A stretch of DNA of 64,000 bases from an uncultured Methanosarcinales archaeon (GTDB lineage: Archaea > Nanobdellota > Nanobdellia > Woesearchaeales > GW2011-AR9): assembly GCA_964510085.1 (NCBI GenBank), contig CAZEAB010000004.1, forward strand, positions 9,284 to 73,283. Direction: 5' to 3'. The stretch's first letter is position 1, and each line of letters opens with the position of its first letter. The notes under the pieces are model-generated. The model made no database searches. It saw only the letters and a list, made by a program, of their open reading frames with translations, and was not told the DNA's origin. The position numbers and the translations under genes were made by a program. Of this stretch, positions 1 through 48,559 are shown piece by piece.

Positions 1-124
1 AAAGTAATTCAAACAACTCGAGTGGGGATAAAAGAAGACGTAGAATTACCTTGGCGGTTCTATCTAGCTGGCAATATGTATGTAAGTAGAAGGTAATGCC
101 CAGAATAGAATGATTTTGTGTAAT

Positions 125-181
125 GGGGGCCCTGACTTGTCGAGGTGGGTACTTCGTAGAAGTACGATACCACCGTGCCCC
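125..181 (-). ncRNA. Copy A of a recurrent structured motif (unclassified; RNA nature inferred)
   Basis: Minus strand reads GGGGCACG GUGG UAUC GUACUUC-UAC-GAAGUAC CCAC CUCGAC AA GUCAGGGCCCCC. It has the same invariant unpaired blocks and compensatory stems as the copies at 44913, 48423, 47079 and 33243. It is GC-rich in an AT-rich spacer. Transcription is not demonstrated. Confidence 0.5.
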
Positions 182-260: not shown

Positions 261-395
261 GCGGGGGTGAGAGAGTGGTCAATTGTGAATCAGTGATGAA
301 CAATTTGTTCAGAAATCTCTGATTTCAGACAAAATCTGCCAGGTTGAGGGCCTGGTGCCTTAGTGGCTACGCGTGTTCGAACCACGTCCCTCGCA
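261..395 (+). tRNA. tRNA-Leu(GAG), class II, with an inferred ~51-nt intron in the D-loop/D-stem junction (about 283-333)
   Basis: Acceptor GCGGGGG (261-267) pairs with CCCTCGC (388-394, one G-U), and the discriminator is A395. D region is AGA-GAGUGGUCAA. Anticodon arm is CCAGG-UUGAGGG-CCUGG (339-355) with anticodon GAG at 346-348. There is a 15-nt variable arm (356-370) and a T arm GCGUG-UUCGAAC-CACGU (371-387). A T-run follows the 3' end. The D-stem 3' strand UCU-G (335-338) is separated from the D-loop by about 51 nt. Intron boundaries are approximate. Confidence 0.7.
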
Positions 396-7200: not shown

Positions 7201-9722
7201 CGTGGATGTATAGACAAGAAAAAGTATACAAGGAAAGTAACGGCGATAAAGGAACGTATTACCCTGAATGGAGATATTATGGTGGAAGAGATTTCACAGC
7301 AGCATTCGGACTAAATCATGTAGCAGATCTTGTTGGAGAAAAAACAAACGCAAGAATAAACCCACGAGATTATGTTGGTGCATGGCAAACAATGTGTCTT
7401 CCACGAATTAACAACCAACTTACTGTAGCGCAAAGTGTGTTAACACAATTTCAAAACTGCGTAATACAAGCACAGAATTCAGAATTTCAAGATGCAGGTA
7501 TATGTAAAACATTCTTTGCAACAAACGTCTGTGGATGGTTATACAAGGGTATTTCCGCATTTACAAACCAATGTTCTCCATTTACATTTGATGACGTTGA
7601 AGGATTTGAAGAATTAGGTGACGGAGGAATTTCTGCATTTTCAAGAGCATTTAAGCAGGGAGTTCCTGAAGCACTAACAAGTAGCGTGAATGAATTAAAA
7701 GATGATTATGGAGCTCATGCACAAGAACAATTTAAAGTAGGAACACAAGGAGTTGCACAATCAATGTGTCTCTTCGCATTTGGTTACGATTTCCCAACAG
7801 ATTTTGATTTCATTACAGATGCAGCATATTCAACTCCAATGAAAACATCTGTGTCACCATTAATTGCAAACAGAGAATTTACTTCATTTGATCCAATAAG
7901 AGGGGTTCCAGAATTTACATATAATCTAGGAACTCTTGTAATACCAGGATGTCCTTTACGAGGATATAAAAGCTCTTTTGTCTGTATAGGAACAAACGAT
8001 TTAGGAAAACCAGGTATAGATCAAAGCTGTAGTGGACAGGGATGTGATTGTTTACAAGCATCAAATCAGAACTCTCCATTTGAAGCAGAGAAAACAAAAG
8101 TTATTCCAAGTGGAACAAAGAATGGAGTATTCCCACAATTTCAAGCAATTGATATTCCATATAAGAACCCGTTACAAGTTGAAAGCAATTTCAGATATGA
8201 CCACGTTAAATTAGAACTATACCTCGAATCTGGTGTTGACCCTAAAGAATGTTTTGATGAATCTGTTGCAACAAATGTCGGTGGAGAGATATACTTCCCA
8301 CTTTCGCATGTGGAAGGAAGAGAATTCGCACAATGTCAAGTACATGGGTCAACAGGGAGATATATCTGTCCTGCATTAAGTCAAATCTTCCAGCAAGGTG
8401 GCGCGTTCTTAGAACATCCATTTGTACAATGTTATGATAAGAGGGAAGATGAATTTGTAGATTGTCAACAACCAAATGTAATCCTTGTTGATGAAGAAAT
8501 AGTTGTGAAACCATATCTCTCAGCAATACAATCAGATTCTTGTTTAGTAATATCAGATAATAAAGGAAATGTAAAACATAACATCCTACTCCCTCAAAGT
8601 CCTGTACCAATCGCTCCTAGAATTAGTTTAGGAAAAGCAACCGCAAACTTACTTACTGGAGGACAAGTAGGAACTATAAGGAAAGTAGATTCACAAAGCG
8701 TGAGTGGCTGTGGAGGAAATGGAGGCCAAATAAATCAAATTGGATTCTCACAAACTTCAACAAAATCAAGAACGATGCCATTTGAATTTACAAGAATAAG
8801 TGGCAAATACCAATTACAAGTTCCTCATGGTATTACAGTAATACCAGGAACAGATAGTTTTGATATTAATACTAACAGATATTTAACAAAGAAAGGTGAG
8901 ATTACACTGTCTACGTCAGATGTTAACAAAGCAACATTTAGTGTTGATGGATATAGATTTAATCAAGTTCTTGGAACACCTTCACAATCTCATGGGAAAT
9001 GTGTTTATAGGACAGTTCCTTCTTATGGGGGGAAGATAAGTAAGGTTGGTGTTGGCTCAACCAGAATAAAGATTGAATTGAAACAACCAGGACCAGGAAA
9101 TAGTTGTTGGAAATCAACAAAACTTGTTGATAAAAATCCTCTTGGAAAGAACGTACATTCACAATCAATCAGGATTCAATCAGCGAAAATGGAATCTCAA
9201 TCGGTAATAACATTACATCAAGATTTCATGAATGGCAATTATCATCTCGTTGCATCAAAAGCACAAGATATTATTAAACAAGAAGAAAGTACAATGGAAG
9301 ATGCACTTGCATTATATTATTGGAGTGCAAGTTTAGTGATGCAAGGTATTGGAAATCATAACTCAGAAATTGTAAGTTTATTGAAGATATTCTTTAAACG
9401 AGAATTACAGGGGAAGAAATTATCAAATTATCCTCAAGGAGTTGTTGGTTTTGATGAGTATAAGAAAATTAGAACATATCTTTGTTTAGTAGATCAACAA
9501 GTCGGTTCACAGAATCAAAATCTATGTAAAGGCGTTGTGAGTTCTGGAACCCTATGTGCAAGTTCAACTGGATTAAAACCAGGATTCAAAAAACCAACAG
9601 GATGGAATTCATATGCATGTAAAGATTCAAAAGCGAAGGGATGTTTAGCATATACGCAATATGTTCCAAAAGGTGTAACAGGGAGGGGTTGTCCAAGTAG
9701 TCAACTATGTTGTCCAACATGA
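4263..9722 (+). CDS. giant secreted cysteine-rich protein (1819 aa; FN3-like and Ig-like N-terminal region)
   Basis: Sec-type signal MSNIRKISVLLVILLFVNLPLVSA, then an FN3-like segment (SAVISWQTDEPADSFVRYG...TTYVYEV) and Ig-like repeats. There are no Cys in the first ~415 aa and roughly 50 Cys (hand count) in the remaining ~1400 aa, ending CPSSQLCCPT. I recognise no catalytic motif. Confidence 0.7.
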   Translation: MSNIRKISVLLVILLFVNLPLVSALQFSGVDAKVTENSAVISWQTDEPADSFVRYGTDKTQMTPIGDSAEVTSHSLSITGLQPETTYVYEVESNNEIDNNNGSLYSFTTPTPDTTPPTLDVNISTKIKGTTLEATGTTEAGIEVIVLLGTVEVKRITTDETGTFSVKFTIAPDVLNPVTFIAKDPSGNTVSKSYSVLSDTTRPKITLQKLPDIIGDKQFSLNGTISENSSIEVLLNNKSIHSSIGTSFEAKLNVNEGTNNLVVTATDSAGWVTSLTKKLNSDTEAPTVKFDVSKGTEYYEFQAESSITGTTEPGATVYLYVFVPQTQETRLRFDRALQKVTANSEGKFIFEEVDFSGLGTSTIDTLSPTHLPPGLEGIILPKLDRIQQAQRVNYRVYVLAEDKSGKVGHATKTVYVNSCSSGDYAFDVFVPPQFPVQPLKLNPLLMKEGRESMSVVYNLTYRGAALPTINTNTGDTENPYRISNVKFEKACTKANADKDDFNIGCKLAPRLLNGKSIKSDKTMWFLETPLLRTEDFSEITDDVLTEFTKRQLKIPLKIVVNYQERNVDGSWQAKTQVECREIGSFVDIPIDSSLLVPDSLAEYTVSATNETLHQINRVKKILDPLVKWTGVSCYGSWLTKGVLKINRVVASWYESFTQKGSKDKPACPTPSKQREMYLKSTLDDWKKLQSKHPNAAASIPIDFNNAEELKKKTLDEACPSTAAAWEREAFFDKLYKTTCDRFFCRSSPSRWTETETEEDVKKVVLDQQQCAASSNCITMTPVENCQNELKKNPAAGEIVRVRQEKGSFTCWRDREGTLYYHCTENDADVECKKRAESLEEKGVWILKPVLSIGKSKPKILALKGELNNVACVAQDRKCSSVCKRKQGYVSSKSGFKQSGTKYVAGGSCYKENAQGKLEGVNGVKTHASAFTAGYTQDCFIAEDTGDKYQCVCEQDQDILKKQSKKGSREALRMEKDVAEPWMYRQEKVYKESNGDKGTYYPEWRYYGGRDFTAAFGLNHVADLVGEKTNARINPRDYVGAWQTMCLPRINNQLTVAQSVLTQFQNCVIQAQNSEFQDAGICKTFFATNVCGWLYKGISAFTNQCSPFTFDDVEGFEELGDGGISAFSRAFKQGVPEALTSSVNELKDDYGAHAQEQFKVGTQGVAQSMCLFAFGYDFPTDFDFITDAAYSTPMKTSVSPLIANREFTSFDPIRGVPEFTYNLGTLVIPGCPLRGYKSSFVCIGTNDLGKPGIDQSCSGQGCDCLQASNQNSPFEAEKTKVIPSGTKNGVFPQFQAIDIPYKNPLQVESNFRYDHVKLELYLESGVDPKECFDESVATNVGGEIYFPLSHVEGREFAQCQVHGSTGRYICPALSQIFQQGGAFLEHPFVQCYDKREDEFVDCQQPNVILVDEEIVVKPYLSAIQSDSCLVISDNKGNVKHNILLPQSPVPIAPRISLGKATANLLTGGQVGTIRKVDSQSVSGCGGNGGQINQIGFSQTSTKSRTMPFEFTRISGKYQLQVPHGITVIPGTDSFDINTNRYLTKKGEITLSTSDVNKATFSVDGYRFNQVLGTPSQSHGKCVYRTVPSYGGKISKVGVGSTRIKIELKQPGPGNSCWKSTKLVDKNPLGKNVHSQSIRIQSAKMESQSVITLHQDFMNGNYHLVASKAQDIIKQEESTMEDALALYYWSASLVMQGIGNHNSEIVSLLKIFFKRELQGKKLSNYPQGVVGFDEYKKIRTYLCLVDQQVGSQNQNLCKGVVSSGTLCASSTGLKPGFKKPTGWNSYACKDSKAKGCLAYTQYVPKGVTGRGCPSSQLCCPT

Positions 9723-10243
9723 AACAAGCAAGTGTAATGGTAAAATTAGTAGTATTCTTGATTGTTATAGTGGTAACAAGTTCAATTGTGTTGTTATTAG
9801 TTCGCACAGGAGTAGTAGATCCAACGGGAGAACAACAAGATGTATTAAATGTTGATTTTATTCCTATTGCAACTGGTTCGTTGAGTATTCGTAGCGTTTC
9901 ATTATGTGGTTCACTAATTGAGTTTGAATGTCTTGAAACAGAAGAGTTTTCAGTTGGACAAAAGGTTAATGTGTTGTTCTTAGTTGAGACAGATGTAGAT
10001 GCTGGCAGAGTGTTGTTAATTAGAAGTTATACGGTTAAAGATTCAGCTGGAAATGTTGTATTTGCATCTTCAGGAAATAATAATGTAGTCTTTGAAGAAA
10101 CAAGTGAAAAATCAGTAGAATTAATTGGCTTTTCAGATTCATTTACTCCAGGCGGAGTTGGTGAGTTTGTATTGGAAGCTATTGTTGAAAATCCAATCTT
10201 GGGAAAGAAAGTATCTGCAAGTAAGAGGTTTGTGATAGGATGA
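9707..10243 (+). CDS. single-pass membrane protein with beta-rich ectodomain
   Basis: N-terminal TM KLVVFLIVIVVTSSIVLLLV. The likely true start is ATG 9719, which forms an ATGA overlap with the upstream stop at 9720-9722. Its own stop overlaps the next start at 10240-10243. Confidence 0.5.
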   Translation: MLSNMKQASVMVKLVVFLIVIVVTSSIVLLLVRTGVVDPTGEQQDVLNVDFIPIATGSLSIRSVSLCGSLIEFECLETEEFSVGQKVNVLFLVETDVDAGRVLLIRSYTVKDSAGNVVFASSGNNNVVFEETSEKSVELIGFSDSFTPGGVGEFVLEAIVENPILGKKVSASKRFVIG

Positions 10244-13200
10244 AATGGGCTGTGTTAGTGGTGATGTTAGTTCTTGCTAGTTCTATGGTTCTTGCTGAAT
10301 CTTTTGGTGGTCCTGGTGGAACAGAGTTTGTATTGGATTGTGGTGAAGGTTACTTAATTAATGGAATTGGTGGAAAAGAAGGAGCGTTAATAGATCAGTT
10401 ATTTGTCAATTGTATTAATCCGTTTAAAGATGAAGGTCAACGGAGAAGTATAAAAGAAGCAGGAGGAAAAGGTGGAGAAGATTTTGCATTTTTTTGTCAT
10501 GAAAGGAAATATGTTTCAAAAATCAATATGCACAAAGCAGGAGATTTTATTTCAGGATTACAAGCAGTATGTACTGATGGAACAAAATCAAAAATATTTG
10601 GAACGGAACAAAAAGGATTTGATTCTTTATTTTGTGATGCAAAGAATCCAGCTTTATCAACAATAGCTGGGAAAGCAGGAAATTTTTTAGATTCAATTAG
10701 TTTTGATAGATCTGTATGCCATATAATCCCAACAGCAGAAGATATTCTCAATGCGAAAATACCTCAAGAAGTAAGAAATGCCGAAGCTCCAATTGGGTTA
10801 CCAGAAATTGGAACAGAAACTCCTACAGAAGAAAATGGTGTGTTTACATGGAATAAAGAAGGAGTAGAGATTGTATATGATGGAAATAATATTGTATGGA
10901 AGAATTCTCTTGGAGAATGGGTTCTTGACATTAATTCTAAATCTAAAAGCTTTCAATCGACAACTCAATCAGTTAACTATTGGTCATTAGACAAAGTAAT
11001 TAATAGTGTTAACGTACCTTCCGGATTTCCAACACCGGATAGGAATGCAGATTGGAATATAGAGAAAGAAAGAAAACATATAAAAATTAATGTTGATGAA
11101 TGGGAAGTAACGTATTTTGTAGATGGAAGCAAGCAATGGAGGCGTGCAGATATAGCATACTCTGTATGGGCCGAGAGTAGCATTGGAAAATTCTTCCTTG
11201 GAAAACGTGAAGATTGGGGAGCATTAAAAGATACAGAAACAGGACCACCATTAGGTGTGCCAGGTTATTCAGGAAATCCAGCAAGTTCTATCTCCATATT
11301 TGATGGAGTATATGATTATTGGGATGTAAATGAATGGAGAATCTTTAAGAAACAAAACGAGAATGAATTTATATGGCAACGTGGTGGAAGGTGGTATTAT
11401 TATGATAATGGAAAACAAGTAAGCCAACCATATGCATCAGAATGGCCTTCTCCACATAGTTTCTCTCCTACATTTGAAACAAGTGGAAGTTCTTGGGTAT
11501 TAAGTAATAATGCTGCTAAGAAAATACAAGACCCATCACTTCAATGTGTTGGTAAATCTATTGGAATAACTGGAGCGTCAAATACCGTTGGTTCTCAAAG
11601 TTGGGCAAATAAACATTTACAAAAATTATGCGGTTCGAAATCAAAAATAAAAGTAAAAGCTACAGGTGGTTGGGGTCCTACAAAACAAAAAGCATTCTTA
11701 ACAAAAGATTTTCTTACACATAATAACGCCCCTTTAGATATTTTGGTAATTAATCCTTCCGGAAATTCTATTACTGGAGGCTCATGTAAAGATATGTACA
11801 AAGATCTAGATACAATGATTAACACCGCATTTGAAAATAATGTGAAGAAAGTTGCTGTAATGACTATTAGCCCTCGTTCAAACTGGCAGAAGAATTGTGT
11901 TGTAAAATATAATAACGGTTTACAAAAATTTATCACAGAGAATATTCAATCTTCACGAGCAGCAAAAGTACAGGTAATACATATTGAAAATGCGCTTATA
12001 ACTCCAGATAAACCAACCCATTGTGCATATTGTAACAAAGGGAATCAACGACATTGGAATTCAGAAGGACATTCACGAGTTGCAGCAGCAGTATATCAAA
12101 ACTTATTTGCTGCGCCAGGAGATTATACCCCAGAACAGATTACCAATTTACGTCGACAATTCGGATTAACATACTCACAGAAGGATGGTGCTGCTGTTTC
12201 AACACCATCTCCACCTATTTTTGACCAGAATTGTTTAGATTTGAATACATGTAAAGAAATTGATGAAGCATGGGGAAAATTATCTAAAGGACTTGGTGTA
12301 GGTGGAAAACCAGCTGAAAATGTATGGGTGAGAGATGCTGGCTGGAAGAAGTTTGAGGATGTGTATAGAAAAGTAACTGTTGAGAGTAGTAAAGGTTCTC
12401 AAAAAAGTCCAGTACCTGTATCAAATGCAATTGATATTTCCCATCATCAGGGTAAGATTGATTGGAAGAAGGTTAAAGCAGCAGGAATAGATTATGCATT
12501 CATTAAAGCATCTGAACATACAACATTTGTTGATAAAAGATTTAAAGAAAATGTAAAGAACGCACAAGCTGCAGGTGTTGAAGTTCTCGGATTATATCAT
12601 TTTGCACAACCAATGAAAAATAGTGCAGTAGAAGGAGCACAACATTTTGTAGAAACAACGAAGGGATACCTTGGAAATGGTATTAGGCCAGTATTAGATG
12701 TGGAAGCAGGAAAAGAATTAGGGAAGAAAGGCGTTTCAGATTGGGTTCTTACGTGGTTACAACATGTTGAAAAGAAAACAGGTCAGAAACCAATAATATA
12801 TGGAGGCAATTACGCTCGTAATTATATGGATGAGAGAATCGTCGATAAATATGATTTGTGGTATGCAAGTTGGACACATAATCCTAACAAAAAGCCAAGA
12901 AGTCCGAGTCCATGGAGTGGATATAAATACTGGCAATATAGTGATAGGGGAAGTGTAGATGGTATTTCTGGAGATGTAGATTTAGATGTTGTAAAAGTAA
13001 CATCTGGTCTTATTGCAGGAATTACAGATGAACAGATAGAGGCACATCAACCTAAAGTTATAGAAGAGAAAGTTGTTAAATATGATACGTTTGAAGTAAA
13101 AACAACATTTAGAGGATTCTTAGATGGAAGTTCTGGAAATGATAGACAAGAATACAAATATTTTATCTTACATGATGGTTCTGCAAATAAAATCCCAGAA

Positions 13201-13707
13201 TGTAATCTTGCAGTTGCAAAAACCGTTGGGTTATGGAAAGCTCGTGCAGTACTTCAAAATTCAAAAGTATCTTCTCATTATTACATATGTCATGACGGAA
13301 CAATTCACCAAATATTAGCAGATCAACGTGTAGGATATCATGCTGGCTGTCCATATAAAGGAAGTCCAAAAGAGTTATGTCCAATCTCTAATGTTAATAG
13401 AAGGTCAATTGGAATAGATTTCCAGAACTATGGTGGAGCAGTGAACTCATATACTGGTTCTAAGTATACGCAAGCGCAATATGATGCAGCTAATAACTTA
13501 ATGGCCTTCCTTGGTAATCTTCACAATATCCCTGTAGATGATGAACATATTCTAGGACATTTTGAAGTTACCAAAACAGTAAAGACAGCAGCCCAATTAA
13601 ACAAAAATGACCCCTATCCTCCATTTGATTGGTCTAAGATCGCAGGATTGAAGTATGACCATCAGCAGAAGAATGGTCCTAAGATGGATCCATTAGTTAC
13701 AGGATAA
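10240..13707 (+). CDS. secreted multidomain peptidoglycan hydrolase (beta-prism lectin-like + SGNH esterase-like + GH25 muramidase + amidase_2)
   Basis: - Signal peptide MKWAVLVVMLVLASSMVLA.
- About 10297-10725: three GGxGGxxF...I.G..G..ID/IS repeats (jacalin-like beta-prism).
- About 11545-12100: SGNH-like blocks (GASNTVG, PSGNS, HWNSEGH).
- About 12424-12995: GH25 signature (DISHHQGKIDW...FIKASEH...AGVEVLGLYHF...DVE).
- About 13150-13635: amidase_2/AmpD-like (SSHYYICHDGTIHQ...GYHAG...SIGIDFQN...ILGHFEV...KNDPYPPFDW). Confidence 0.8.
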   Translation: MKWAVLVVMLVLASSMVLAESFGGPGGTEFVLDCGEGYLINGIGGKEGALIDQLFVNCINPFKDEGQRRSIKEAGGKGGEDFAFFCHERKYVSKINMHKAGDFISGLQAVCTDGTKSKIFGTEQKGFDSLFCDAKNPALSTIAGKAGNFLDSISFDRSVCHIIPTAEDILNAKIPQEVRNAEAPIGLPEIGTETPTEENGVFTWNKEGVEIVYDGNNIVWKNSLGEWVLDINSKSKSFQSTTQSVNYWSLDKVINSVNVPSGFPTPDRNADWNIEKERKHIKINVDEWEVTYFVDGSKQWRRADIAYSVWAESSIGKFFLGKREDWGALKDTETGPPLGVPGYSGNPASSISIFDGVYDYWDVNEWRIFKKQNENEFIWQRGGRWYYYDNGKQVSQPYASEWPSPHSFSPTFETSGSSWVLSNNAAKKIQDPSLQCVGKSIGITGASNTVGSQSWANKHLQKLCGSKSKIKVKATGGWGPTKQKAFLTKDFLTHNNAPLDILVINPSGNSITGGSCKDMYKDLDTMINTAFENNVKKVAVMTISPRSNWQKNCVVKYNNGLQKFITENIQSSRAAKVQVIHIENALITPDKPTHCAYCNKGNQRHWNSEGHSRVAAAVYQNLFAAPGDYTPEQITNLRRQFGLTYSQKDGAAVSTPSPPIFDQNCLDLNTCKEIDEAWGKLSKGLGVGGKPAENVWVRDAGWKKFEDVYRKVTVESSKGSQKSPVPVSNAIDISHHQGKIDWKKVKAAGIDYAFIKASEHTTFVDKRFKENVKNAQAAGVEVLGLYHFAQPMKNSAVEGAQHFVETTKGYLGNGIRPVLDVEAGKELGKKGVSDWVLTWLQHVEKKTGQKPIIYGGNYARNYMDERIVDKYDLWYASWTHNPNKKPRSPSPWSGYKYWQYSDRGSVDGISGDVDLDVVKVTSGLIAGITDEQIEAHQPKVIEEKVVKYDTFEVKTTFRGFLDGSSGNDRQEYKYFILHDGSANKIPECNLAVAKTVGLWKARAVLQNSKVSSHYYICHDGTIHQILADQRVGYHAGCPYKGSPKELCPISNVNRRSIGIDFQNYGGAVNSYTGSKYTQAQYDAANNLMAFLGNLHNIPVDDEHILGHFEVTKTVKTAAQLNKNDPYPPFDWSKIAGLKYDHQQKNGPKMDPLVTG

Positions 13708-13757: not shown

Positions 13758-13885
13758 GGCCCCGTAGCATAGTCTGGTGGTGCGCACGACTGATATTGAC
13801 TATGCAGTTATCGTGAGGTCCGGAGTTCAAATATTAGCGTTTGATAATAATTTCGAACGTTAGTGAGAAAGTCTCCGCGGGGCCA
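13758..13885 (+). tRNA. tRNA-Ile(GAU) with two inferred introns (canonical 37/38, 14 nt; T-arm, 40 nt)
   Basis: Perfect 7-bp acceptor GGCCCCG (13758-13764) / CGGGGCC (13878-13884) with discriminator A13885. D arm is GCAU-AGUCUGGUG-GUGC. Anticodon stem is CACGA (13785-13789) / UCGUG (13811-13815), with loop CUGAUA + 14-nt insert (13796-13809) + A. Variable region is AGGUC. T stem CGGAG (13821-13825) and loop UUCAAAU are followed by a 40-nt insert (13833-13872) before CUCCG (13873-13877). A T-run follows. Confidence 0.7.
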
Positions 13886-24324: not shown

Positions 24325-24597
24325 ATGGAACTACGAGAAGAGAAGCTTTCTAGAGCAATTAGCGCATTTTCTAGACGACAGATTCTTAGGCTTCTCGCTG
24401 ACGGGGACATGACTGTAAAAGAAATCGCCACCTCCACAAAGATGAGCATGTCCCTTGCTTCTCGTCATCTTTCCATGCTTAGAGATTTAGGAATTTTAGA
24501 CGTAAAAAGAAAACATCCATTCAAATTCTATTCATTAAAAATCAAAGAAATTAAAGGATTATTAGACATCTATGATAAGGTGATACAGAAAATATGA
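24325..24597 (+). CDS. ArsR/SmtB-family winged-helix transcriptional regulator
   Basis: 90 aa. RRQILRLLADGDMTVKEIATSTKMSMSLASRHLSMLRDLGIL is a typical ArsR HTH. Its stop overlaps the next start (ATGA at 24594-24597). Confidence 0.65.
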   Translation: MELREEKLSRAISAFSRRQILRLLADGDMTVKEIATSTKMSMSLASRHLSMLRDLGILDVKRKHPFKFYSLKIKEIKGLLDIYDKVIQKI

Positions 24598-27500
24598 GAA
24601 AAGCCTGGAAACGAAAGAAGAAAGAGGACCATCATAAAGAAATTGTAGTTCTACTAATGATGATAGGACTCACAGGTTTATTCTTCCTTAGCGTTTCTGA
24701 TACATCAGTACAAACATTCTCATATGTTGGCGACTTCCTAGCAGGTGATTCTATAACCGGTGCTGCTATAGGATTATTTACAGATTCTAATGATGATGAC
24801 TTGGTTGATTTCTTTGAAGATTTTGGAGAAGGTTTAGATAACACCACAAGATGGTATAACTCATCAAGTCTCGCTTCCGTTCATTTTGTCACGAACGGAA
24901 TAATGATCAACACATCATTAACAAACGATGCTGGAGATGTTTCTGTAGTTACAGCACACAATGTTACTGTTCATTCATTTAACATGACTGCTAACATAAC
25001 TGTACAGAATCTTTCTTCAACATTTTCAGTGGATTCTAGTACTGCAGTTCATGTAGCTGCTTTTAATCAAAGTAATCTTCAACAAAAAACTAGTTGCTCA
25101 GTAAATCTTGAAGATCCAGATGAAACTGGTGGTTATTATGTTTTATATTTTTCAAACTCTACAACATCTGGCCCTCCACCAACTATCATCTCAACCTCTT
25201 TAGATGATTTAGGAGCGAACATCACGGGACTGCTTAAAATGAATTATGATAATGAGACAAAAGTGGTTAATTGTTCATTTTTTAGTGGAGGGGACATGTT
25301 ATCTGTTAAGGGCGTAAGTAATGACGTTGCACAAGACTTTGGTGTTGGTATTTTTGCAGAATTAGCATATGCAGGTGCAGGAGATCCAACAGGAGATTTG
25401 AATACTACAATTCATTCATTTAATTATTCATTGGCTCCAGTAGAGGAAGCCCCTCCTGCAAATAGTCTACCTTTACTCGGAAGTATTGATTTAAACACCA
25501 CAGATTTATCGAATGATACAAATCAAAACCTTACTGCTAATGCTGTTCATTTTGATGATGATAGTGACGGAGTAAAAATTATTTACAATTGGTTATTGAA
25601 CGGTTCTTCACAACTATTATTGAATACACCATTTGAAGGAGATAATGAGAATGAAGCAATCAATACTACTGATTATGCCTATTATAACAACGGTTCTGTT
25701 TATGGTGCTACATGGGATCCTTCAACTGGTTTTGATGGAAATGGAAGTTACGATTTTAATGGAAGCACAGACTGGATAAATTTTTCAGATAATACTCGTT
25801 ATGAACCTACAGAAAATTTCAGTATTGAAGTATGGGTAAACCCAAGTGGTAATGGGAGTAGTACTGGTAGTGGTGGGGAACCACGGTCAATAATAAGCAA
25901 AGGAGGGGGATTTTCAGCAGGATATAGTCTGGAACTAAATACAAATGAAATCTCTACAATTTCATTTTATACTGGATCAGGTGGTTCGAGCGATATAGAA
26001 GGAAGTTTGACTGCACCAGATAATGTTTGGACCCATGTTGTTGCTGTATATAACGGTACTAATGCTAGCTTATGGATAAATGGTGTATTAGATACAGCAA
26101 TACCAAGAACTGGAGCTTTCACATATGATACTAGTGCATTAGAAGTTGGTCGTGCTACTGGGACATCCGGACAAGAAGCATATTTTAACGGTTCCATTGA
26201 TGACTTACGAATATGGAATAGATCCTTAACTGGAGAACAGATTCTTGCATTATTCAACAACAAAACCAATCTAATTGTTGCAAAAGAAACCACTTCCGGC
26301 CAAAACTGGACTGTAGATTTAACACCACACGATGGTTCTGCAGCTGGTGGGACCAATAGAAGTAATCAAGTTATTACGGTTCCTGTTTCTGTCGCTGAAA
26401 ACAACCCTCCTCTTCTTGGGGATATTGACTTAAGTTCTACAGATTTGTCTAATGATACCAACCAAAATATATCTGTCTCCTCAGAACCAAGTGATGCAGA
26501 TGGTGACACAGTAAAAACAATTTACAACTGGTTATTAAACACCTCGTCACAGTTATTATTAAACGCACCATTTGAAGCAAATAATGAAAATGAAGCCATT
26601 AATGCAACAGACTATGCTTATTGGAGTAACGGTTCTGTATATGGTGCAACATGGAGTGGCACAAGTGGTTTTGATGGAAATGGGAGTTATGATTTCAATG
26701 GAAGTACTGACTGGATAAACTTTTCAGATAATACGAGATATGAACCAACAGAAAATTTTAGTATTGAAGTATGGGTGAAACCTGATGGAAATGGTAGTGA
26801 GTCTAGTGGTGGTGGAGTACCTCGTGGAATCTTAAATAAAGATGCAGGGTTTACTGCTGGGTATGGTCTTGAGATTTCTACTAATGACTTAAGTACTATT
26901 TTATTTTATACTGGTTCTTTAGGAGCAAATGATATTGAAAGTACTGGAACAGCTCCAGACAATGTTTGGACACACATCGTAGCAGTATATAACAGCACAA
27001 ATGCAAGTGTATGGATTAATGGAGTGTTGGACACTGCTATTGCCAGAACTGGTGCTTTTACATATGGTACTGGTTCATTAGAAGTTGGAAGATCTACTGG
27101 AACAACTAACCAAGAGAACTATTTCAACGGTTCTATGGATGAATTACGTATCTGGAATCGCTCATTATCTGGTGAACAAATTCTTGCATTATTTACAAAC
27201 AGAACAGATTTAATCGTCGCAAAAGAAACAACATCTGGTCAGAACTGGACTGTTGATGTAACACCAAATGATGGAACTCAAGATGGTGGGACTAATAGAT
27301 CAAACCAACTAATAACAGTTCCGGCAGCACCTCCAAATAATCCTCCAATATTGGGTGCTATTAATCTAAACACAACTAATATCACCTCAAATAGTACTAA
27401 TCAAAATCTAACAATATATGCAACGCCTTCTGATGCAGATAGTGATGGCGTAAAAATAATTTACAATTGGTTAGTAAATAGTTCTTCGCAAACAGTTCTG

Positions 27501-30500
27501 AATATTCCTTTTGAATCCAACGGTGGAAATGAGGGGATAAACACAACCGATTATTCAGGAAGAAGCATTAATGGAAGTGTTAACAGTTCCATCTGGAACT
27601 CTACTGGAGGTGTTGATAAAAATGGAAGTTATGTATTTAATGGAATTAATGCATCTATTAAATTTCCAGATAGAACAGAATTTGAATTAGTTGATAATAT
27701 AACTATTGAAGGGTGGGTGAAACATGAAGGAAATTCAACAGATGGCATTACACCAAGGGCAGGAGGTTTCATACAAAAAGATGATGGGATTGGTGCAGGA
27801 TGGTCAATTACAGTTGGAACTGATGACAATGCAACTATTGTATTTCAAATATCTGTTGATTCTTTACCTGTCACACATACTTCAACAGGAAATGTTTCTC
27901 CTAACGCATGGACACATATTGTAGCAAGGTATAACAGAACTAATGTAAGTATTTTTATTAATGGGGTAGAAGACACTATTTTTGCATTTAATGATACAAT
28001 GACGTATGATACAGGTCAACTACAAATAGGACAAGATGGTCCAGATGGCTTTGCGGCATTCTTTAACGGCTCTATGGATGAAATACGTATTTGGAATAGA
28101 TCTTTATCAAATGAACAAATCTCTGCAATTTTTAATAACAAGACAAATGTAATTGTTTCACAAGAAACAACTGGAAACCAGAACTGGACTGTTGATGTAA
28201 CACCAAATGATGGAACTCAAGATGGTGGGACTAATCGAAGTAATCAAGTAATAATAGTTCCTGCTGCTGCTACTGATACTGCTGCACCATTAGTCGAATT
28301 TATTGCTCCAACTAATGGAAGTAATTATAGTAATTTAGATACAAATGTTCTGTTTAATGTAAGTGTTTTAGAAGAAAATAATGATAGTGTTATCTTCATC
28401 TTCAATAATGCGACTGGTACAGCATTCAACAAAACAGGATATAATGCATCGGGTTATTGGAATACTACGCTAGATATGTCTTCTTTGGTAGAAGGAGCTC
28501 ATACAGTAGTTATTCATGCAAATGATACTTCGGGAAACGAAAACAATAGTGTGAATCTTTCATTTACAAAAGACTCTTCCGCACCAACTGTTACATGGAC
28601 TAACCCAACAAATGTTTCAAATTATACCGTTTCTACAGGCAATGTTTCATTTAATATTACTGTTAATGACTTAACTGCTCAAACAGTTTTATTTAGCTTT
28701 GACAATTCCACAGGAAACACTTTCAATGCTACTGCAATAAATGATAGCGGAACGTGGTACGCAAATGTAAACGTAAGTGGTTTAGTAGAGGGAACAACAA
28801 CCGTAACGATAATAGCAAATGATACTTTAGGTCAAATTAACAACACAGAACAGATAATAATTATTGTTGATAACACCGCACCAACAGTTACATGGTCAAC
28901 TCCAAATAACAATACCAACTACTCTTTATCGTATGGAAATGTGTCCTTTAACATCACAGTCAATGAAGCAAACTTTGTAAGAGAATTACTCTTCAGCTTT
29001 GACAATGCAACTGGAAATGCATTCAATGTAACTGGAACGAATGATAGTGGTACATGGTATGCTAACGTAAATGTATCTGGATTGACAGAAGGACTTAATA
29101 CAATTACAGTATTTGCAAACGATTCTTCTGGAAATGTAAATAATTCCATTCAAGTTTCTTTAACTGCAGACTTTACAGCACCAACAGTTACGTTAGTAAC
29201 ACCATCAAATTCATCAAACTTTTCCAAAACAAGCTACAACCAAACATTTAATGTAAGTGTAGGAGATTTAACTAGTAATTCAGTTATCTTCCGATTTGAT
29301 ACTGAGACTGAAACACTATTTGATGTAACAGCAGAAAATAAATCTGGATATTGGTCAGCTTCATACAATGTTTCTAGTCTTGCAAATGGAACTTATACTG
29401 TAACCATAATAGCAAACGATTCTGCAAGTAACCAGAACCAATCTCAAATTATAAAATTTTATGTTGATAAGGAAGCACCAATTGTAACAATTCATGAACC
29501 AGTAGCTCCAGCCAATACAAGTTTATTAGAAATAAACTTTACAACTCACGAATTTGCTGTCTGTTTATGGAAAAACAGTACTGGTTCCTACACTAACTTC
29601 AACAGAACTGAAACTTCCAGTCATTATCAAAATGTAACGGATTTATCTCCAACAAGCCAAATATATAGTTTCTCATGTAATGATACATTAAATAATAAGA
29701 TTAATTTCACATTTCCAATTTTAGTAACAACTCAAAATTACACAAACCTTTCAAGAAAAACGCTTAACTTTAGTGGGAATACAACAGATACAGTAACAAC
29801 ACTTCCTAATTTTAACATTACATTAAACTTATCTGGAACATATGTCTCAAATTTCTCACTTGCTGTAACAGAATATAATTTAACACCTGAAACAGTTAGC
29901 CTTACCATAAGTGGAGAAACAGTTACAGAATTTAGGTATTATGTAATTGAAGCGCCAGATATTACAGAACAAATTAACAAATTAACATTTAAAATAACAT
30001 ATAATGAAACACTCGTTACAAATGCAGGAATTGCTGAAGCAGATTTAGAAGTATTCTATTACAACCTCTCATCTGAAACATGGGTTCCAGAAACAGAGTA
30101 TGCAGTTGATACAGATAATAATTTTGTTGAAGTTAATGTAACTCATTTGAGTACATTTGTTCTTGGAAAATCTGCTGTAGTTGCAGGTGATAGTTCAAGT
30201 AGTAACACAGGAAGTCCAGGAGGTGGCGGTAGTAGTTCCGGTGCTGGAGCAGCATCACCATCAAGTACTCCAACACCATCCACACCATCCACACCAAGTG
30301 CACCAAGTGCTCCGTCTGCTCCATCAACACCACCTGCACCAAGTGCTCCTAGTACTCCAACCACTGCAGCAACAGCACCATCAAGAGGAAACATAGCAGG
30401 ATTTGCGTTCTTTAACAAAGCAGGAGAATTTACAAAAAATAATGCTGGATTAGTACTTGGATTTTTTACAATAATAGTAATATCATTAGGAGCTACAATC

Positions 30501-31262
30501 TCAATCCCAAGAATTAGACGGAGAAGAAAAATGAAACAAACACAACGGTATAGTATTGTATCAGATAAACCAATAGAACCAATTATGGAGATACAAGATC
30601 AATCCTCAAAAGATGATAGTAAATTAGACCAACAATTTAAACGAGTTGAAGAGCTCATTGACAAAATTGGTGAAACAGATGAACATGCACCAATAGCAGC
30701 ACGATATCACGCAGCTGCATCAAGATTTAGAAAAGAAGCTGCTATTGAAAGTCGTCAAAGATCACCAACAACAACTATATTGGCAGAACCAAAGCGACAT
30801 GAAACATTACGAACAGAATTGGATGATATTCATAATGAATTAGCTACATTACGAGAACCAGTAAAAAAATCAAGAATCATTACATCCTCTCCTGTAATGG
30901 GTCATGTTGATGTTAAAAACAGAGATAAAGAATTAAGAGAAGTACAAAGAAAATTGGCTGAAAAGAAAGCTGAAATGAAAGAAATGCCAAAACCTACAAT
31001 TGACCCTGCTAGAGATATTGATATTCAATCAAAATTACAAGAACTTGGTCATCGAAACAAACCACGAATTATTAACTCAGTAAGACCAACAACAGGCCAT
31101 ACAAAATTTGAAGATACAACATTAATGAATAAAAAAATAAACCAATTACAATCAACTGAAACCAACACACCCCCAAAAGCGGAGCAACGGGTTGCTAAAC
31201 CAGGAAAAGAATTACAAGAACTTGAAGAAGAAATTAGAAAATTAAGTGAAAAACTACGCTAA
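24594..31262 (+). CDS. giant surface glycoprotein-like protein (2222 aa; 3 LamG/ConA-like modules, about 5 Ig-like repeats, PT-rich stalk, TM, charged cytoplasmic tail)
   Basis: - N-terminal signal-anchor.
- Three ~310-aa modules, each ending in the Laminin_G_3 signature YFNGS(I/M)D(D/E)LRIWNRSL(S/T)GEQILALF.
- About five ~99-aa repeats beginning AP(T/L/I)V(T/E).
- A PGF-pre-PGF-like segment (THLSTFVLG) and a PS/PT-rich stretch.
- TM helix GLVLGFFTIIVISLGATISI followed by RIRRRRK and a ~250-aa Lys/Glu-rich tail.
- Very many N-x-S/T sequons. Confidence 0.75.
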   Translation: MRKAWKRKKKEDHHKEIVVLLMMIGLTGLFFLSVSDTSVQTFSYVGDFLAGDSITGAAIGLFTDSNDDDLVDFFEDFGEGLDNTTRWYNSSSLASVHFVTNGIMINTSLTNDAGDVSVVTAHNVTVHSFNMTANITVQNLSSTFSVDSSTAVHVAAFNQSNLQQKTSCSVNLEDPDETGGYYVLYFSNSTTSGPPPTIISTSLDDLGANITGLLKMNYDNETKVVNCSFFSGGDMLSVKGVSNDVAQDFGVGIFAELAYAGAGDPTGDLNTTIHSFNYSLAPVEEAPPANSLPLLGSIDLNTTDLSNDTNQNLTANAVHFDDDSDGVKIIYNWLLNGSSQLLLNTPFEGDNENEAINTTDYAYYNNGSVYGATWDPSTGFDGNGSYDFNGSTDWINFSDNTRYEPTENFSIEVWVNPSGNGSSTGSGGEPRSIISKGGGFSAGYSLELNTNEISTISFYTGSGGSSDIEGSLTAPDNVWTHVVAVYNGTNASLWINGVLDTAIPRTGAFTYDTSALEVGRATGTSGQEAYFNGSIDDLRIWNRSLTGEQILALFNNKTNLIVAKETTSGQNWTVDLTPHDGSAAGGTNRSNQVITVPVSVAENNPPLLGDIDLSSTDLSNDTNQNISVSSEPSDADGDTVKTIYNWLLNTSSQLLLNAPFEANNENEAINATDYAYWSNGSVYGATWSGTSGFDGNGSYDFNGSTDWINFSDNTRYEPTENFSIEVWVKPDGNGSESSGGGVPRGILNKDAGFTAGYGLEISTNDLSTILFYTGSLGANDIESTGTAPDNVWTHIVAVYNSTNASVWINGVLDTAIARTGAFTYGTGSLEVGRSTGTTNQENYFNGSMDELRIWNRSLSGEQILALFTNRTDLIVAKETTSGQNWTVDVTPNDGTQDGGTNRSNQLITVPAAPPNNPPILGAINLNTTNITSNSTNQNLTIYATPSDADSDGVKIIYNWLVNSSSQTVLNIPFESNGGNEGINTTDYSGRSINGSVNSSIWNSTGGVDKNGSYVFNGINASIKFPDRTEFELVDNITIEGWVKHEGNSTDGITPRAGGFIQKDDGIGAGWSITVGTDDNATIVFQISVDSLPVTHTSTGNVSPNAWTHIVARYNRTNVSIFINGVEDTIFAFNDTMTYDTGQLQIGQDGPDGFAAFFNGSMDEIRIWNRSLSNEQISAIFNNKTNVIVSQETTGNQNWTVDVTPNDGTQDGGTNRSNQVIIVPAAATDTAAPLVEFIAPTNGSNYSNLDTNVLFNVSVLEENNDSVIFIFNNATGTAFNKTGYNASGYWNTTLDMSSLVEGAHTVVIHANDTSGNENNSVNLSFTKDSSAPTVTWTNPTNVSNYTVSTGNVSFNITVNDLTAQTVLFSFDNSTGNTFNATAINDSGTWYANVNVSGLVEGTTTVTIIANDTLGQINNTEQIIIIVDNTAPTVTWSTPNNNTNYSLSYGNVSFNITVNEANFVRELLFSFDNATGNAFNVTGTNDSGTWYANVNVSGLTEGLNTITVFANDSSGNVNNSIQVSLTADFTAPTVTLVTPSNSSNFSKTSYNQTFNVSVGDLTSNSVIFRFDTETETLFDVTAENKSGYWSASYNVSSLANGTYTVTIIANDSASNQNQSQIIKFYVDKEAPIVTIHEPVAPANTSLLEINFTTHEFAVCLWKNSTGSYTNFNRTETSSHYQNVTDLSPTSQIYSFSCNDTLNNKINFTFPILVTTQNYTNLSRKTLNFSGNTTDTVTTLPNFNITLNLSGTYVSNFSLAVTEYNLTPETVSLTISGETVTEFRYYVIEAPDITEQINKLTFKITYNETLVTNAGIAEADLEVFYYNLSSETWVPETEYAVDTDNNFVEVNVTHLSTFVLGKSAVVAGDSSSSNTGSPGGGGSSSGAGAASPSSTPTPSTPSTPSAPSAPSAPSTPPAPSAPSTPTTAATAPSRGNIAGFAFFNKAGEFTKNNAGLVLGFFTIIVISLGATISIPRIRRRRKMKQTQRYSIVSDKPIEPIMEIQDQSSKDDSKLDQQFKRVEELIDKIGETDEHAPIAARYHAAASRFRKEAAIESRQRSPTTTILAEPKRHETLRTELDDIHNELATLREPVKKSRIITSSPVMGHVDVKNRDKELREVQRKLAEKKAEMKEMPKPTIDPARDIDIQSKLQELGHRNKPRIINSVRPTTGHTKFEDTTLMNKKINQLQSTETNTPPKAEQRVAKPGKELQELEEEIRKLSEKLR
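25456..28270 (+). repeat. three tandem ~0.93-kb coding repeats (LamG modules)
   Basis: Units start near 25456, 26401 and 27334. Units 1 and 2 are near-identical at protein level with mostly synonymous nucleotide differences; unit 3 is more divergent. Confidence 0.8.
28285..29730 (+). repeat. about five tandem ~0.3-kb coding repeats (Ig-like modules)
   Basis: The GCACCA(A/T)... (AP.V) unit starts recur at 28285, 28581, 28879, 29179 and 29476. Confidence 0.7.
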
Positions 31263-33120: not shown

Positions 33121-33242
33121 CGCGATTTTATACGCTCTACCACCATTATGGATATCATATTTAATTTCTATTCACCTAACGTATAGGAATATGTAAATCA
33201 GTTAAAAGGTTTATTGTTCTTCGTAAGTAATATGTGATCTCA

Positions 33243-33318
33243 TGTGAGCTAGGCACGGCGTTTATCATGAGCTCACTTTGTTTACTCATCGCCTCAGCTG
33301 GCTAGGCCCCTGCTCACA
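33243..33318 (+). ncRNA. Copy E (divergent) of the recurrent structured motif
   Basis: Outer stem UGUGAGC, then UAGGCACG GCG UUUAUC AUGAG-loop-CUCAU CGC CUCAGC UG GCUAGGCCCC, closed by outer stem GCUCACA. It ends 55 nt upstream of the radical SAM ATG at 33373. Confidence 0.4.
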
Positions 33319-33372
33319 AGATATTACTTCCTCTTAAATAGATTTATAAAAGAAAACAGCCAAATACATACT

Positions 33373-41257: not shown

Positions 41258-41329
41258 AGTTCAGAGAATATTTTAGAGTATTTAAATTTAACGAGAAATA
41301 TTAAATACTAAAAGTAACTTTTCATTTGA

Positions 41330-41836
41330 ATGCTTAGAATAATTTTTGATACGAATATATATGGTAAAATTATTGAAGAAGAAAACTTTGAACAAATTGC
41401 TACTAAAATTAAATCCGACGTAAATTTTAAAGTATATGGTTATAGTCCTATTAGAAAAGAGCTACGTGACACTCCAAAATCATCAAGGTTAGGTAAATTA
41501 AATAGACGTAACTTATTACTTAATGTTTATGATGGTATTACTAATGGGAAATATCTTAGAGATTCTTTAGTTATTCATAGACTTGCTATGAAGTTTTACA
41601 ATACTTATAGAGAACTTGGTGGCATAAGAAATTGGGAAAAAACAAACATAAATGTTGATTTTACTATAGTCGCATGTGCTATGTTCTACAAATTAGATAT
41701 TGTTGTTTCGGATGACTCAAAAACAATGTTAAGTAAACAAGCTTTGAAAGCTTTTAGACACATTTCAATCAAAGAAGCATTACGACAACCAACATTCTGG
41801 AAATATTCGGATTTAAGAACAAGATATAAATTTTAA
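41330..41836 (+). CDS. PIN-like domain protein (tentative)
   Basis: MLRIIFDTNIY... and ...DIVVSDD acidic motifs. 168 aa. Confidence 0.35.
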   Translation: MLRIIFDTNIYGKIIEEENFEQIATKIKSDVNFKVYGYSPIRKELRDTPKSSRLGKLNRRNLLLNVYDGITNGKYLRDSLVIHRLAMKFYNTYRELGGIRNWEKTNINVDFTIVACAMFYKLDIVVSDDSKTMLSKQALKAFRHISIKEALRQPTFWKYSDLRTRYKF

Positions 41837-42011
41837 GAAGTTGTTACTTTAATAAATTGCTTTAATTCTTTTCTAAATTGTGGATCTTTTTTTGCTTCCT
41901 TTATCTCTGCCATAAGCCTAGCCCACTTTTGGTCCTTTTTCTTTGAAAATAGTTTTTTAATCATCTTTCTAAGGATATTATTTTGATATTTAAATCTTTT
42001 GAATATAAAAA

Positions 42012-42157
42012 TGGGGTCGCTGGGACTTGAATTCCTGGACTAATTCCATTGAAACTAGTCTCCCAGGACCTCAAGATTTCAATTGAGGAAGATCCTCATC
42101 TTCAGTATCGCAGAAGCGTATGCTCCACTTGCGCTCTCCCAACTGAGCTACGACCCC
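42012..42157 (-). tRNA. tRNA-Phe(GAA) with three inferred introns
   Basis: The minus strand reads GGGGUCG UA GCUC AGUUGGGA GAGC G CAAG[21 nt]A CUGAAG[22 nt]A UCUUG AGGUC CUGGG[30 nt]UUCAAGU CCCAG CGACCCC A. Removing the bracketed segments (+ coordinates about 42107-42127, 42078-42099, 42032-42061) gives a canonical 73-nt tRNA-Phe with a perfect acceptor stem, D arm and T arm. T5 follows the 3' end. Confidence 0.7.
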
Positions 42158-42304
42158 ATCAAAGTCTTATATCTATAGCCTATTTATAATAGTTTTGGTG
42201 TTGGGATTACGTTTAGTATGAAAAATGACCCCCCTACACTTAGGTGTAAGAAAAAGTGAGAGTTGTTTAGGAAAATTTATATAATAATTTAACTCAATAA
42301 TAAC

Positions 42305-42586
42305 ATGCTTGAATTGATTGTAAATCTAACAAAACCATTTTGGGAGGGGTATGTTAATAGAAAAAAACTTTCAAGATATGAGCCTCCCCGAGATCATAAT
42401 CAAGAACGACTTGATGCTTTTGGTGGTAATTGCTGGATTACTATTGGAGAAGGTCATGTTTCTGGATATGGAAGTACCATATTTGATTCTTATTTTGATT
42501 TACTTGAACAAGCTCCATGGACTACTCGTTCAGTTGCAATGAGAATTAATAATTATGGAAAAGATCCGCTTCCCGATATTGGTTAA
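42305..42586 (+). CDS. hypothetical protein
   Basis: 93-aa ORF with no motif recognised. Confidence 0.3.
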   Translation: MLELIVNLTKPFWEGYVNRKKLSRYEPPRDHNQERLDAFGGNCWITIGEGHVSGYGSTIFDSYFDLLEQAPWTTRSVAMRINNYGKDPLPDIG

Positions 42587-42635
42587 ATAACCCTCCCTTT
42601 CTTCATCAATAAACAGACCACCCTAAACAACTTCT

Positions 42636-44831: not shown

Positions 44832-44912
44832 CTATCTTCTTCTAAGAAGAAGAATATGTTTAAAAAAGTTCTCCTAAAAAACTTTATCTAAAATTAAACA
44901 CATTTGTATATC

Positions 44913-44967
44913 GGGGCACGCCCGAATCGTACCTTTTAGGTACCGGGCTCGACAAGTCAGGGCCCCC
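44913..44967 (+). ncRNA. Copy B of the recurrent structured motif
   Basis: GGGGCACG CCCG AAUC GUACCU-UUU-AGGUAC CGGG CUCGAC AA GUCAGGGCCCCC. Flanked by complementary UUUGUAUAU / AAAUACAAA. It ends 87 nt upstream of the GH15 start. Confidence 0.55.
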
Positions 44968-45053
44968 AAATACAAAATGATGTTATTACATATAATCTTC
45001 TCTTTGAAGAAACTATTATAAACAATGAATTATTACTATAAAACTAAAAAAAG

Positions 45054-48422: not shown

Positions 48423-48559
48423 TGTATACTGGGGCACGGCAGATTCGTTTAGTTTATAACTAAACCTGCCTCGACTCATGAAAATCAAAACATATTGATT
48501 TTCAGAGCTTAAATGAAATCCTTGTTTCATTTAATGCTACGTCAGGGCGCCAGTATACA
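48423..48559 (+). ncRNA. Copy C (expanded) of the recurrent structured motif
   Basis: UGUAUACUGGGGCACG GCAG AUUC GUUUAGUU-UAU-AACUAAAC CUGC CUCGAC [two extra perfect hairpins, 48475-48540] GUCAGGGCGCCAGUAUACA. It ends 81 nt upstream of ATG 48640. Confidence 0.55.

Follow-up and report, generated by a model that had tools for sequence, protein, structure and literature searches.

That a single archaeal tRNA gene can carry as many as three introns is established, mainly from Thermoproteales (PMC4033280, PMC8450103), where multi-intron tRNAs were described in Pyrobaculum, Thermofilum and Caldivirga (Sugahara et al. 2007/2008, reviewed in PMC4033280 and PMC8450103). Sequential formation of bulge-helix-bulge (BHB) motifs has been described for other archaeal multi-intron tRNAs (PMC8450103). 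In DPANN archaea increased tRNA disruption is reported together with variants of the splicing endonuclease EndA, and some DPANN tRNAs escape prediction (PMC5829648). An EndA of the epsilon2 type is known from ARMAN-2 (PMC3239211, PMC3488258); a survey that included one Woesearchaeota and one Pacearchaeota genome in its set reported epsilon2 in ARMAN-2 and, for several DPANN lineages whose tRNAs are disrupted, an alpha4-type EndA carrying an L3 loop (PMC5829648). Broad-specificity EndAs cut relaxed BHB motifs (PMC5829648, PMC3239211).

The tRNA-Phe locus analyzed here lies in a 64-kb stretch of DNA (hereafter the window), which is part of an 80-kb metagenome scaffold; the same population is present in several samples. 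The window has a G+C content of 34%, a DPANN-like gene content and the archaeal markers Hel308 domain 4, NOG1-type GTPase and TrmB. Homologs of the 731-aa membrane protein encoded next to tRNA-Phe are named Candidatus Woesearchaeota or Nanoarchaeota archaeon, and judging by its genes the host is a Woesearchaeota/Nanoarchaeota (DPANN) archaeon, neither a member of the Thermoproteales nor an ARMAN. Of the lineages considered in the initial annotation, "ultrasmall archaea" came close, while Thermoproteales or ARMAN did not agree with the homologs of the neighboring gene. The window also encodes a 1155-aa protein (10240-13707, plus strand) in which a GH25 lysozyme domain is joined to an N-acetylmuramoyl-L-alanine amidase domain, both of them domains of bacterial cell-wall hydrolases and here found in an archaeon. 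Giant Ig/laminin-G surface proteins are encoded nearby (4263-9722 and 24594-31262), and the GH25-amidase fusion beside these surface proteins fits a DPANN lifestyle dependent on other cells.

The tRNA-Phe(GAA) locus occupies positions 42012-42157 of the minus strand. Its 146 nt comprise four collinear exons and three introns, listed here with the flanking signals in the order of transcription:

42181..42189, minus strand: TATA-box-like element UUAUAAAUA, about -32 to -24 from tRNA position 1 as read from the sequence; putative promoter
42128-42157, minus strand: exon 1, tRNA positions 1-30, GGGGUCGUAGCUCAGUUGGGAGAGCGCAAG; acceptor 5' strand, D arm, G26 and anticodon stem 27-30
42107-42127, minus strand: intron 1, 21 nt, UGGAGCAUACGCUUCUGCGAU; non-canonical site 30/31
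42100-42106, minus strand: exon 2, tRNA positions 31-37, ACUGAAG; contains the anticodon GAA
42078-42099, minus strand: intron 2, 22 nt, AUGAGGAUCUUCCUCAAUUGAA; canonical site 37/38
42062-42077, minus strand: exon 3, tRNA positions 38-53, AUCUUGAGGUCCUGGG; anticodon stem 3' strand, variable loop AGGUC and T stem 5' strand CUGGG
42032-42061, minus strand: intron 3, 30 nt, AGACUAGUUUCAAUGGAAUUAGUCCAGGAA; non-canonical site 53/54
42012-42031, minus strand: exon 4, tRNA positions 54-73, UUCAAGUCCCAGCGACCCCA; T loop UUCAAGU, T stem and acceptor 3' strands, discriminator A73
42007..42011, minus strand: oligo-T run directly 3' of A73; likely an archaeal transcription stop

Joining the exons gives a product of 73 nt in which all stems are paired (acceptor 7 bp, D 4 bp, anticodon 5 bp, T 5 bp), with the anticodon loop CUGAAGA and the T loop UUCAAGU. 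ARAGORN called this spliced sequence tRNA-Phe(gaa). The alignment shows that it keeps U8, A14, G18, G19, G20, U33, G53, U54, U55, C56, A58, C61 and A73; CCA is not encoded at the 3' end. The box UUAUAAAUA recurs with the same spacing upstream of the orthologs in the related contigs L134 and L141, similar boxes precede those in L138 and L139, and T runs are also found after tRNA-Phe orthologs. The initial annotation had proposed a tRNA-Phe(GAA) interrupted by three introns, two of them non-canonical, with inserts of about 21, 22 and 30 nt near 30/31, at 37/38 and at T-stem position 53, and with a perfect acceptor stem, D arm, T stem and loop and anticodon loop CUGAAGA. Our parse gives 21, 22 and 30 nt, every one of these elements is found in the joined exons, and the perfect 73-nt product agrees with an intronless ortholog (L138) described below. 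We hold with high confidence that the Woesearchaeota-type DPANN host has at this locus a real tRNA-Phe gene with three introns, which is very probably functional.

Exploring related contigs, we found that the gene of the 731-aa membrane protein is conserved and that tRNA-Phe directly adjoins it in the relatives. The syntenic tRNA-Phe genes are as follows, with the identity of the neighboring protein to that of the window:

Window: neighboring protein 100%; introns at 30/31 (21 nt), 37/38 (22 nt) and 53/54 (30 nt)
L134: neighboring protein 96% identical; intron at 20/21 only, 18 nt, with a perfect BHB
L138: neighboring protein 72% identical; no introns
L140: neighboring protein 72% identical; introns at 30/31 (21 nt) and 37/38 (17 nt)
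L139: neighboring protein 69% identical; introns at 20/21 and 37/38
L142: neighboring protein 71% identical; introns at 20/21, 37/38 and 59/60
L141: neighboring protein 70% identical; intron at 37/38, the gene being cut by the contig end before the T arm

Six orthologous tRNA-Phe genes thereby display 0, 1, 2 or 3 introns at five positions in all. The intronless gene of L138 (4733-4805, directly downstream of the 731-aa gene) scored 74.8 bits against the Rfam tRNA model (RF00005). It equals the predicted spliced product of the window except at base pairs 4:69, 49:65 and 50:64, each of which is changed on both sides; exon 1 aligns to it free of gaps, and across the 37/38 junction it reads ...CUGAAG-AUCUUG.... 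Because a syntenic intronless gene equals the predicted product, all three junctions are independently confirmed. The cloverleaf of the six orthologous spliced products was paired in 100% of cells with compensatory changes in 10 of 21 pairs, a result reached by 0 of 500 shuffles. At the level of sequence, the exon/intron anatomy, the BHB geometry, the orthology and, through the intronless ortholog, the junctions are established.

The introns themselves can also be compared. At 30/31, the introns of the window and L140 are of equal length and have the end ...GCGAU in common, and at 37/38 they share the start AUGA and the motif UUYCUCAA; based on these shared features the introns of both sites look orthologous. 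The helices of the L140 intron 1 BHB covary with those of the window (CGCC/GGCG central, CAGCC/GGCUG inner): the change of exon A28 to C is compensated by a change of intron U to G, and the inner helix differs in sequence and still pairs. Introns at 37/38 are also present in L139, L140, L141 and L142. The 53/54 intron was absent in all five orthologs with a complete T arm (L141 is cut before the T arm), and in L134 both the anticodon arm and the T arm are uninterrupted. In another strain, represented by contigs L123 and L125, synteny ends just short of where the tRNA would lie and the sequence covered contains no tRNA-Phe, and the contigs of cluster member P0014 are rearranged and without the tRNA. 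A metagenome scan requiring an insert before CUGAAGA matched only two contigs, the window's own population not being among the matches. One is an unrelated metagenome contig with a G+C-rich archaeal-type tRNA-Phe that carries a 23-nt insert at 30/31 (L126, 1635-1688, minus strand), and the other, also unrelated, has a tRNA-Phe with a 35-nt insert at 30/31 (L127, 669-734, plus strand). Since these unrelated contigs carry introns there, the 30/31 site recurs across lineages. In a collection-wide pattern scan, intronless Thermoplasmata tRNA-Phe genes were among the matches listed.

For analysis of the splicing motifs we used the BHB geometry of a flanking helix, a 4-nt central helix, a 3-nt bulge and a flanking helix on each strand, with cleavage after the second bulge nucleotide. 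In intron 1 the central helix CGCA/UGCG forms 4 of 4 pairs, the bulges are AG|U and AU|A, and the inner helix GGAGC/GCUUC has 5 bp. Intron 3 has the central helix CCUG/CAGG (4 of 4 pairs), the bulges GG|A and AA|U, and an inner helix GACUA/UAGUC of at least 5 bp that can be extended. The T-arm insert had been noticed as BHB-like, which stands; the register given for it (CCUGG, bulge GAG, ACUA) does not, the fit being CCUG/CAGG, bulge GGA and GACUA/UAGUC. The registers of introns 1 and 3 yield exactly the tRNA junctions, and the minimum-free-energy structure computed for the precursor (-61.1 kcal/mol, z = -4.9) contains both motifs. In intron 2 the anticodon stem and a 6-bp inner helix (UGAGGA/UCCUCA) are separated by an internal loop of canonical 7-nt/7-nt spacing, and the central helix CUGA/AUUG pairs at 2 of 4 positions (C-G and G.U), making it a relaxed BHB. 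At 37/38 the introns of three complete orthologs (L141 left out) have 2-3 of 4 pairs in the central helix and an inner helix of 3-8 bp. Cleavage after the second bulge nucleotide leaves exons that join to a complete tRNA-Phe, gap-free against L138.

Each intron was then shuffled with its junctions fixed by homology, and the observed quality of the central and inner helices was matched by 15 of 200000 shuffled introns for intron 1, 268 of 200000 for intron 2 and 0 of 200000 for intron 3. As shuffled introns rarely reach the observed helix quality, the BHB pattern exceeds chance. The inner helices are strong, the outer ones weak. The outer helix of intron 1 has 2 bp, that of intron 2 has 1 bp while intron 1 is still present, and that of intron 3 has 0 contiguous bp, with 5 bp only past a 3-nt offset. 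Once intron 1 is removed, the completed 5-bp anticodon stem CAAGA/UCUUG could serve as the outer helix of intron 2. Brute-force removal of BHB segments followed by ARAGORN gave hundreds of alternative "tRNAs" and was non-discriminating; the junctions were settled through homology to the intronless ortholog.

Standard tools did not detect the gene in raw DNA. ARAGORN, run on the unspliced window by default and with intron options, found no tRNA at normal thresholds, and when the threshold was relaxed very far, about 94 spurious genes appeared in the window. Rfam searches of unspliced DNA found no tRNA at the gathering threshold, at E<=5 for the whole window or at E<=10 for the locus. ARAGORN reported Phe(gaa) only if intron 3 was removed and the remainder sat where one intron can be modelled. 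The initial annotation had suggested running ARAGORN with intron options as a check, and this held for the spliced form, which was called; the gene with all three introns was not. Further tRNA genes surfaced in G+C-rich intergenic islands:

13758-13885, plus strand: tRNA-Ile(GAU) with introns at 37/38 (14 nt, 13796-13809) and in the T loop at 59/60 (40 nt, 13832-13871)
261-395, plus strand: tRNA-Leu(GAG), class II, with anticodon arm CCAGG-UUGAGGG-CCUGG and 51 nt extra in the D loop
L128 (the 80-kb source contig), about 40-140, minus strand, just outside the window: tRNA-Ser(GCU)-like gene of which the contig end leaves the 5' part, with a ~38-nt intron at canonical 37/38

The spliced tRNA-Ile (74 nt) was called tRNA-Ile(gat) by ARAGORN, and the BHB central helices form 3 of 4 pairs in both introns. 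The D-loop insert of tRNA-Leu can be read as one 51-nt intron or as two (32 + 19 nt), and either reading leads to a tRNA-Leu that ARAGORN recognizes. The three complete tRNA genes of the window together hold at least 6 introns. Every tRNA gene found on the contig is interrupted, tRNA-Ile and tRNA-Leu at non-canonical sites as well, and the Ile, Leu and Phe genes of the window were all missed by ARAGORN and Rfam on raw DNA. Because the other tRNA genes of the contig are also intron-bearing, the interruption of tRNA-Phe is not a local accident. Beside the tRNA-Phe of L142, a tRNA-Met(CAU)-like gene (about 4085-4195, plus strand), read by eye, has a ~35-nt T-loop insert; given that this gene has one as well, T-loop introns seem common in the lineage. 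Short BHB introns can fragment the tRNA genes of Woesearchaeota enough to hide every tRNA in a 64-kb stretch, and such misses affect how many tRNAs are counted, how complete a genome is estimated to be and which tRNAs are claimed to be "missing".

The same locus could be read as a decaying tRNA-Phe pseudogene with three insertions, the work being done by an intact tRNA-Phe elsewhere in the genome. The view of the genome is an 80-kb contig that leaves room for a second, uninterrupted tRNA-Phe, the closest relative (L134) has a far less interrupted gene at the same position, and the flanks are rich in indels, with the 93-aa and 168-aa ORFs next to the gene missing from L134. Against this, the exons are intact in all 73 nucleotides and pair in every stem, each insertion lies in a BHB motif whose predicted cuts give the exact mature junctions, and the locus is syntenic with the sole tRNA-Phe seen in relatives and has kept its putative promoter and stop signal. 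Moreover, the other tRNA genes of the window are interrupted in like style and cannot all be pseudogenes. We therefore consider decay distinctly unlikely. That the sequence is a chance collection of nearby tRNA-like fragments, or a chimeric contig, is hardly credible: ARAGORN and Rfam report nothing at the locus, yet the 146-nt sequence is identical in two separately assembled contigs, L120 (ENA) and L121 (JGI), so that it is not an assembly artefact, and the identity of the exons to the orthologs together with the shuffle tests excludes chance.

A narrower doubt concerns intron 2, since only introns 1 and 3 might be endonuclease substrates and the 37/38 segment might be cut elsewhere or otherwise, giving a different product. 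In favor of this, the central helix CUGA/AUUG forms 2 of 4 pairs, and a clean BHB at 37/38 is missing from the minimum-free-energy folds computed for the intermediates. The 7-nt/7-nt spacing from the 5-bp anticodon stem to the 6-bp inner helix is nevertheless the exact canonical geometry, four orthologs have 37/38 introns whose central helix is likewise weak in the three complete ones, the intronless ortholog reads straight through the junction (...CUGAAG-AUCUUG...), and broad-specificity EndAs cleave relaxed BHB motifs (PMC5829648, PMC3239211). A different product is on these grounds very unlikely indeed, and we retain the reading of a functional gene with three spliced introns.

On this reading of three spliced introns, the 146-nt precursor would be transcribed from its own TATA-box promoter, and EndA would excise the BHB introns at 30/31 (21 nt), 37/38 (22 nt) and 53/54 (30 nt). 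The exons would then be joined by an RtcB-type ligase, followed by addition of CCA. Neither endA nor rtcB was found within the 80-kb contig. Splicing is probably ordered. The BHBs of introns 1 and 3 are expected to form in the primary transcript, because their helices draw on bases that will later belong to the anticodon stem and the T stem. The intron 1 motif ties up three nucleotides that are to form part of the anticodon stem (C27, A28 and G30), so that the outer helix of intron 2 would be complete only after loss of intron 1. Minimum-free-energy folds of the splicing intermediates showed neither a clean cloverleaf nor a clean intron 2 BHB and are neutral on the order. As to the enzyme, the cores of introns 1 and 3 are near-strict, and the strongest argument for relaxed specificity comes from intron 2, where 2 of 4 central pairs form. 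The earlier suggestion that this organism needs an epsilon2 or heterotetrameric EndA is probably too narrow, because alpha4 EndA with an "L3" insert has been reported in several DPANN lineages.

Comparison of the window with L134 is informative on the history of the introns. The intron set of L134 {20/21} and that of the window {30/31, 37/38, 53/54} are fully disjoint, with a neighboring protein that is 96% identical. As this closest relative lacks all three, the introns of the window are dispensable and at least one of them may be recent. The history would be simplest if the ancestor had been rich in introns that were then lost differentially, and if the 53/54 intron is specific to this lineage. 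In 136 comparisons among 17 introns of the window and its relatives, a small sample, no sign of intron transposition was found: the best local matches were 7-8 nt (z <=3.8), and introns of different sites or genes showed no similarity beyond chance. We propose, tentatively and as somewhat short of an even chance, that BHB introns of woesearchaeal tRNAs turn over near strain-level divergence and that their density may exceed the Thermoproteales record. If this is true genome-wide, these populations would offer a natural setting in which to observe archaeal tRNA introns while they are being gained and lost, and many "missing" DPANN tRNAs would be detection failures. The series of orthologs with 0, 1, 2 and 3 introns at one locus, including the disjoint 96%-identical pair, is material for a study of intron gain and loss, and it is relevant as well to the question of how relaxed a specificity the local splicing endonuclease needs.

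The surroundings of the gene vary as well. The flanks of tRNA-Phe are indel-rich (window 41258-42635 vs L134 12197-12381); the 93-aa ORF (42305-42586) and the 168-aa ORF (41330-41836) that flank it are both absent from L134. No att-like duplicate of the tRNA 3' end was found around these indel-rich flanks. Apart from the tRNA genes, the 80 kb contain at least 7 copies of a G+C-rich, structured intergenic element of about 55-110 nt. Its core, within a longer hairpin, reads GYCGA-GGNGG-hairpin-GAWW-CCNCC-GUGC. Copies were located at:

Window 122-181, plus strand
Window about 33235-33320, minus strand
Window 44912-44968, minus strand
Window 48434-48472, minus strand
L128 693-762, plus strand
L128 2266-2335, minus strand
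L128 4940-5050, plus strand
L134 7787-7823, plus strand

Compensatory changes occur in 7 of 12 consensus pairs of the element, and no Rfam match was found for it. Its copies are insertion-polymorphic between close relatives. The one upstream of the 731-aa gene is a 133-bp insertion relative to L134 and is bordered by a GAGAA repeat; L134 in turn carries a copy elsewhere in this gene neighborhood. The family may be a mobile REP- or MITE-like element, or it may consist of small RNA genes.

Multi-intron archaeal tRNAs and DPANN tRNA disruption are already published, and the tRNA-Phe case shows no new mechanism. Two points deserve notice: at one locus introns turn over at the level of strains, and standard tools fail on each of the tRNAs of the window. 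The gene resembles those of Thermoproteales in having up to three BHB introns per gene at canonical and non-canonical sites, in neighboring BHB motifs that probably form only one after another, and in rapid intron change between relatives. Unlike the Thermoproteales, which are hyperthermophilic crenarchaeotes, the host is a DPANN Woesearchaeote with 34% G+C, and the signature of intron transposition reported for Thermoproteales was not seen in our small sample of 17 introns. The likeness to DPANN archaea with disrupted tRNAs includes ultrasmall hosts, introns that are multiple and non-canonical, and standard predictors that miss part of the set. Whereas the earlier survey gave genome-level counts for one Woesearchaeota genome (PMC5829648), here one three-intron tRNA-Phe is resolved along with orthologs carrying 0-3 introns. 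Three short BHB-type introns across different arms are also reminiscent of a eukaryotic three-intron tRNA gene; that one is nuclear, is served by a eukaryotic endonuclease and has its introns at other positions, and no evolutionary link is implied. Finally, disruption at BHB sites in a small archaeal genome is shared with the split and permuted tRNA genes of Nanoarchaeum equitans and Caldivirga (PMC4033280, PMC3978253), but in contrast to those the tRNA-Phe gene has its four exons in linear order on a single strand, all within 146 nt, and their joining needs neither trans-splicing nor permutation.
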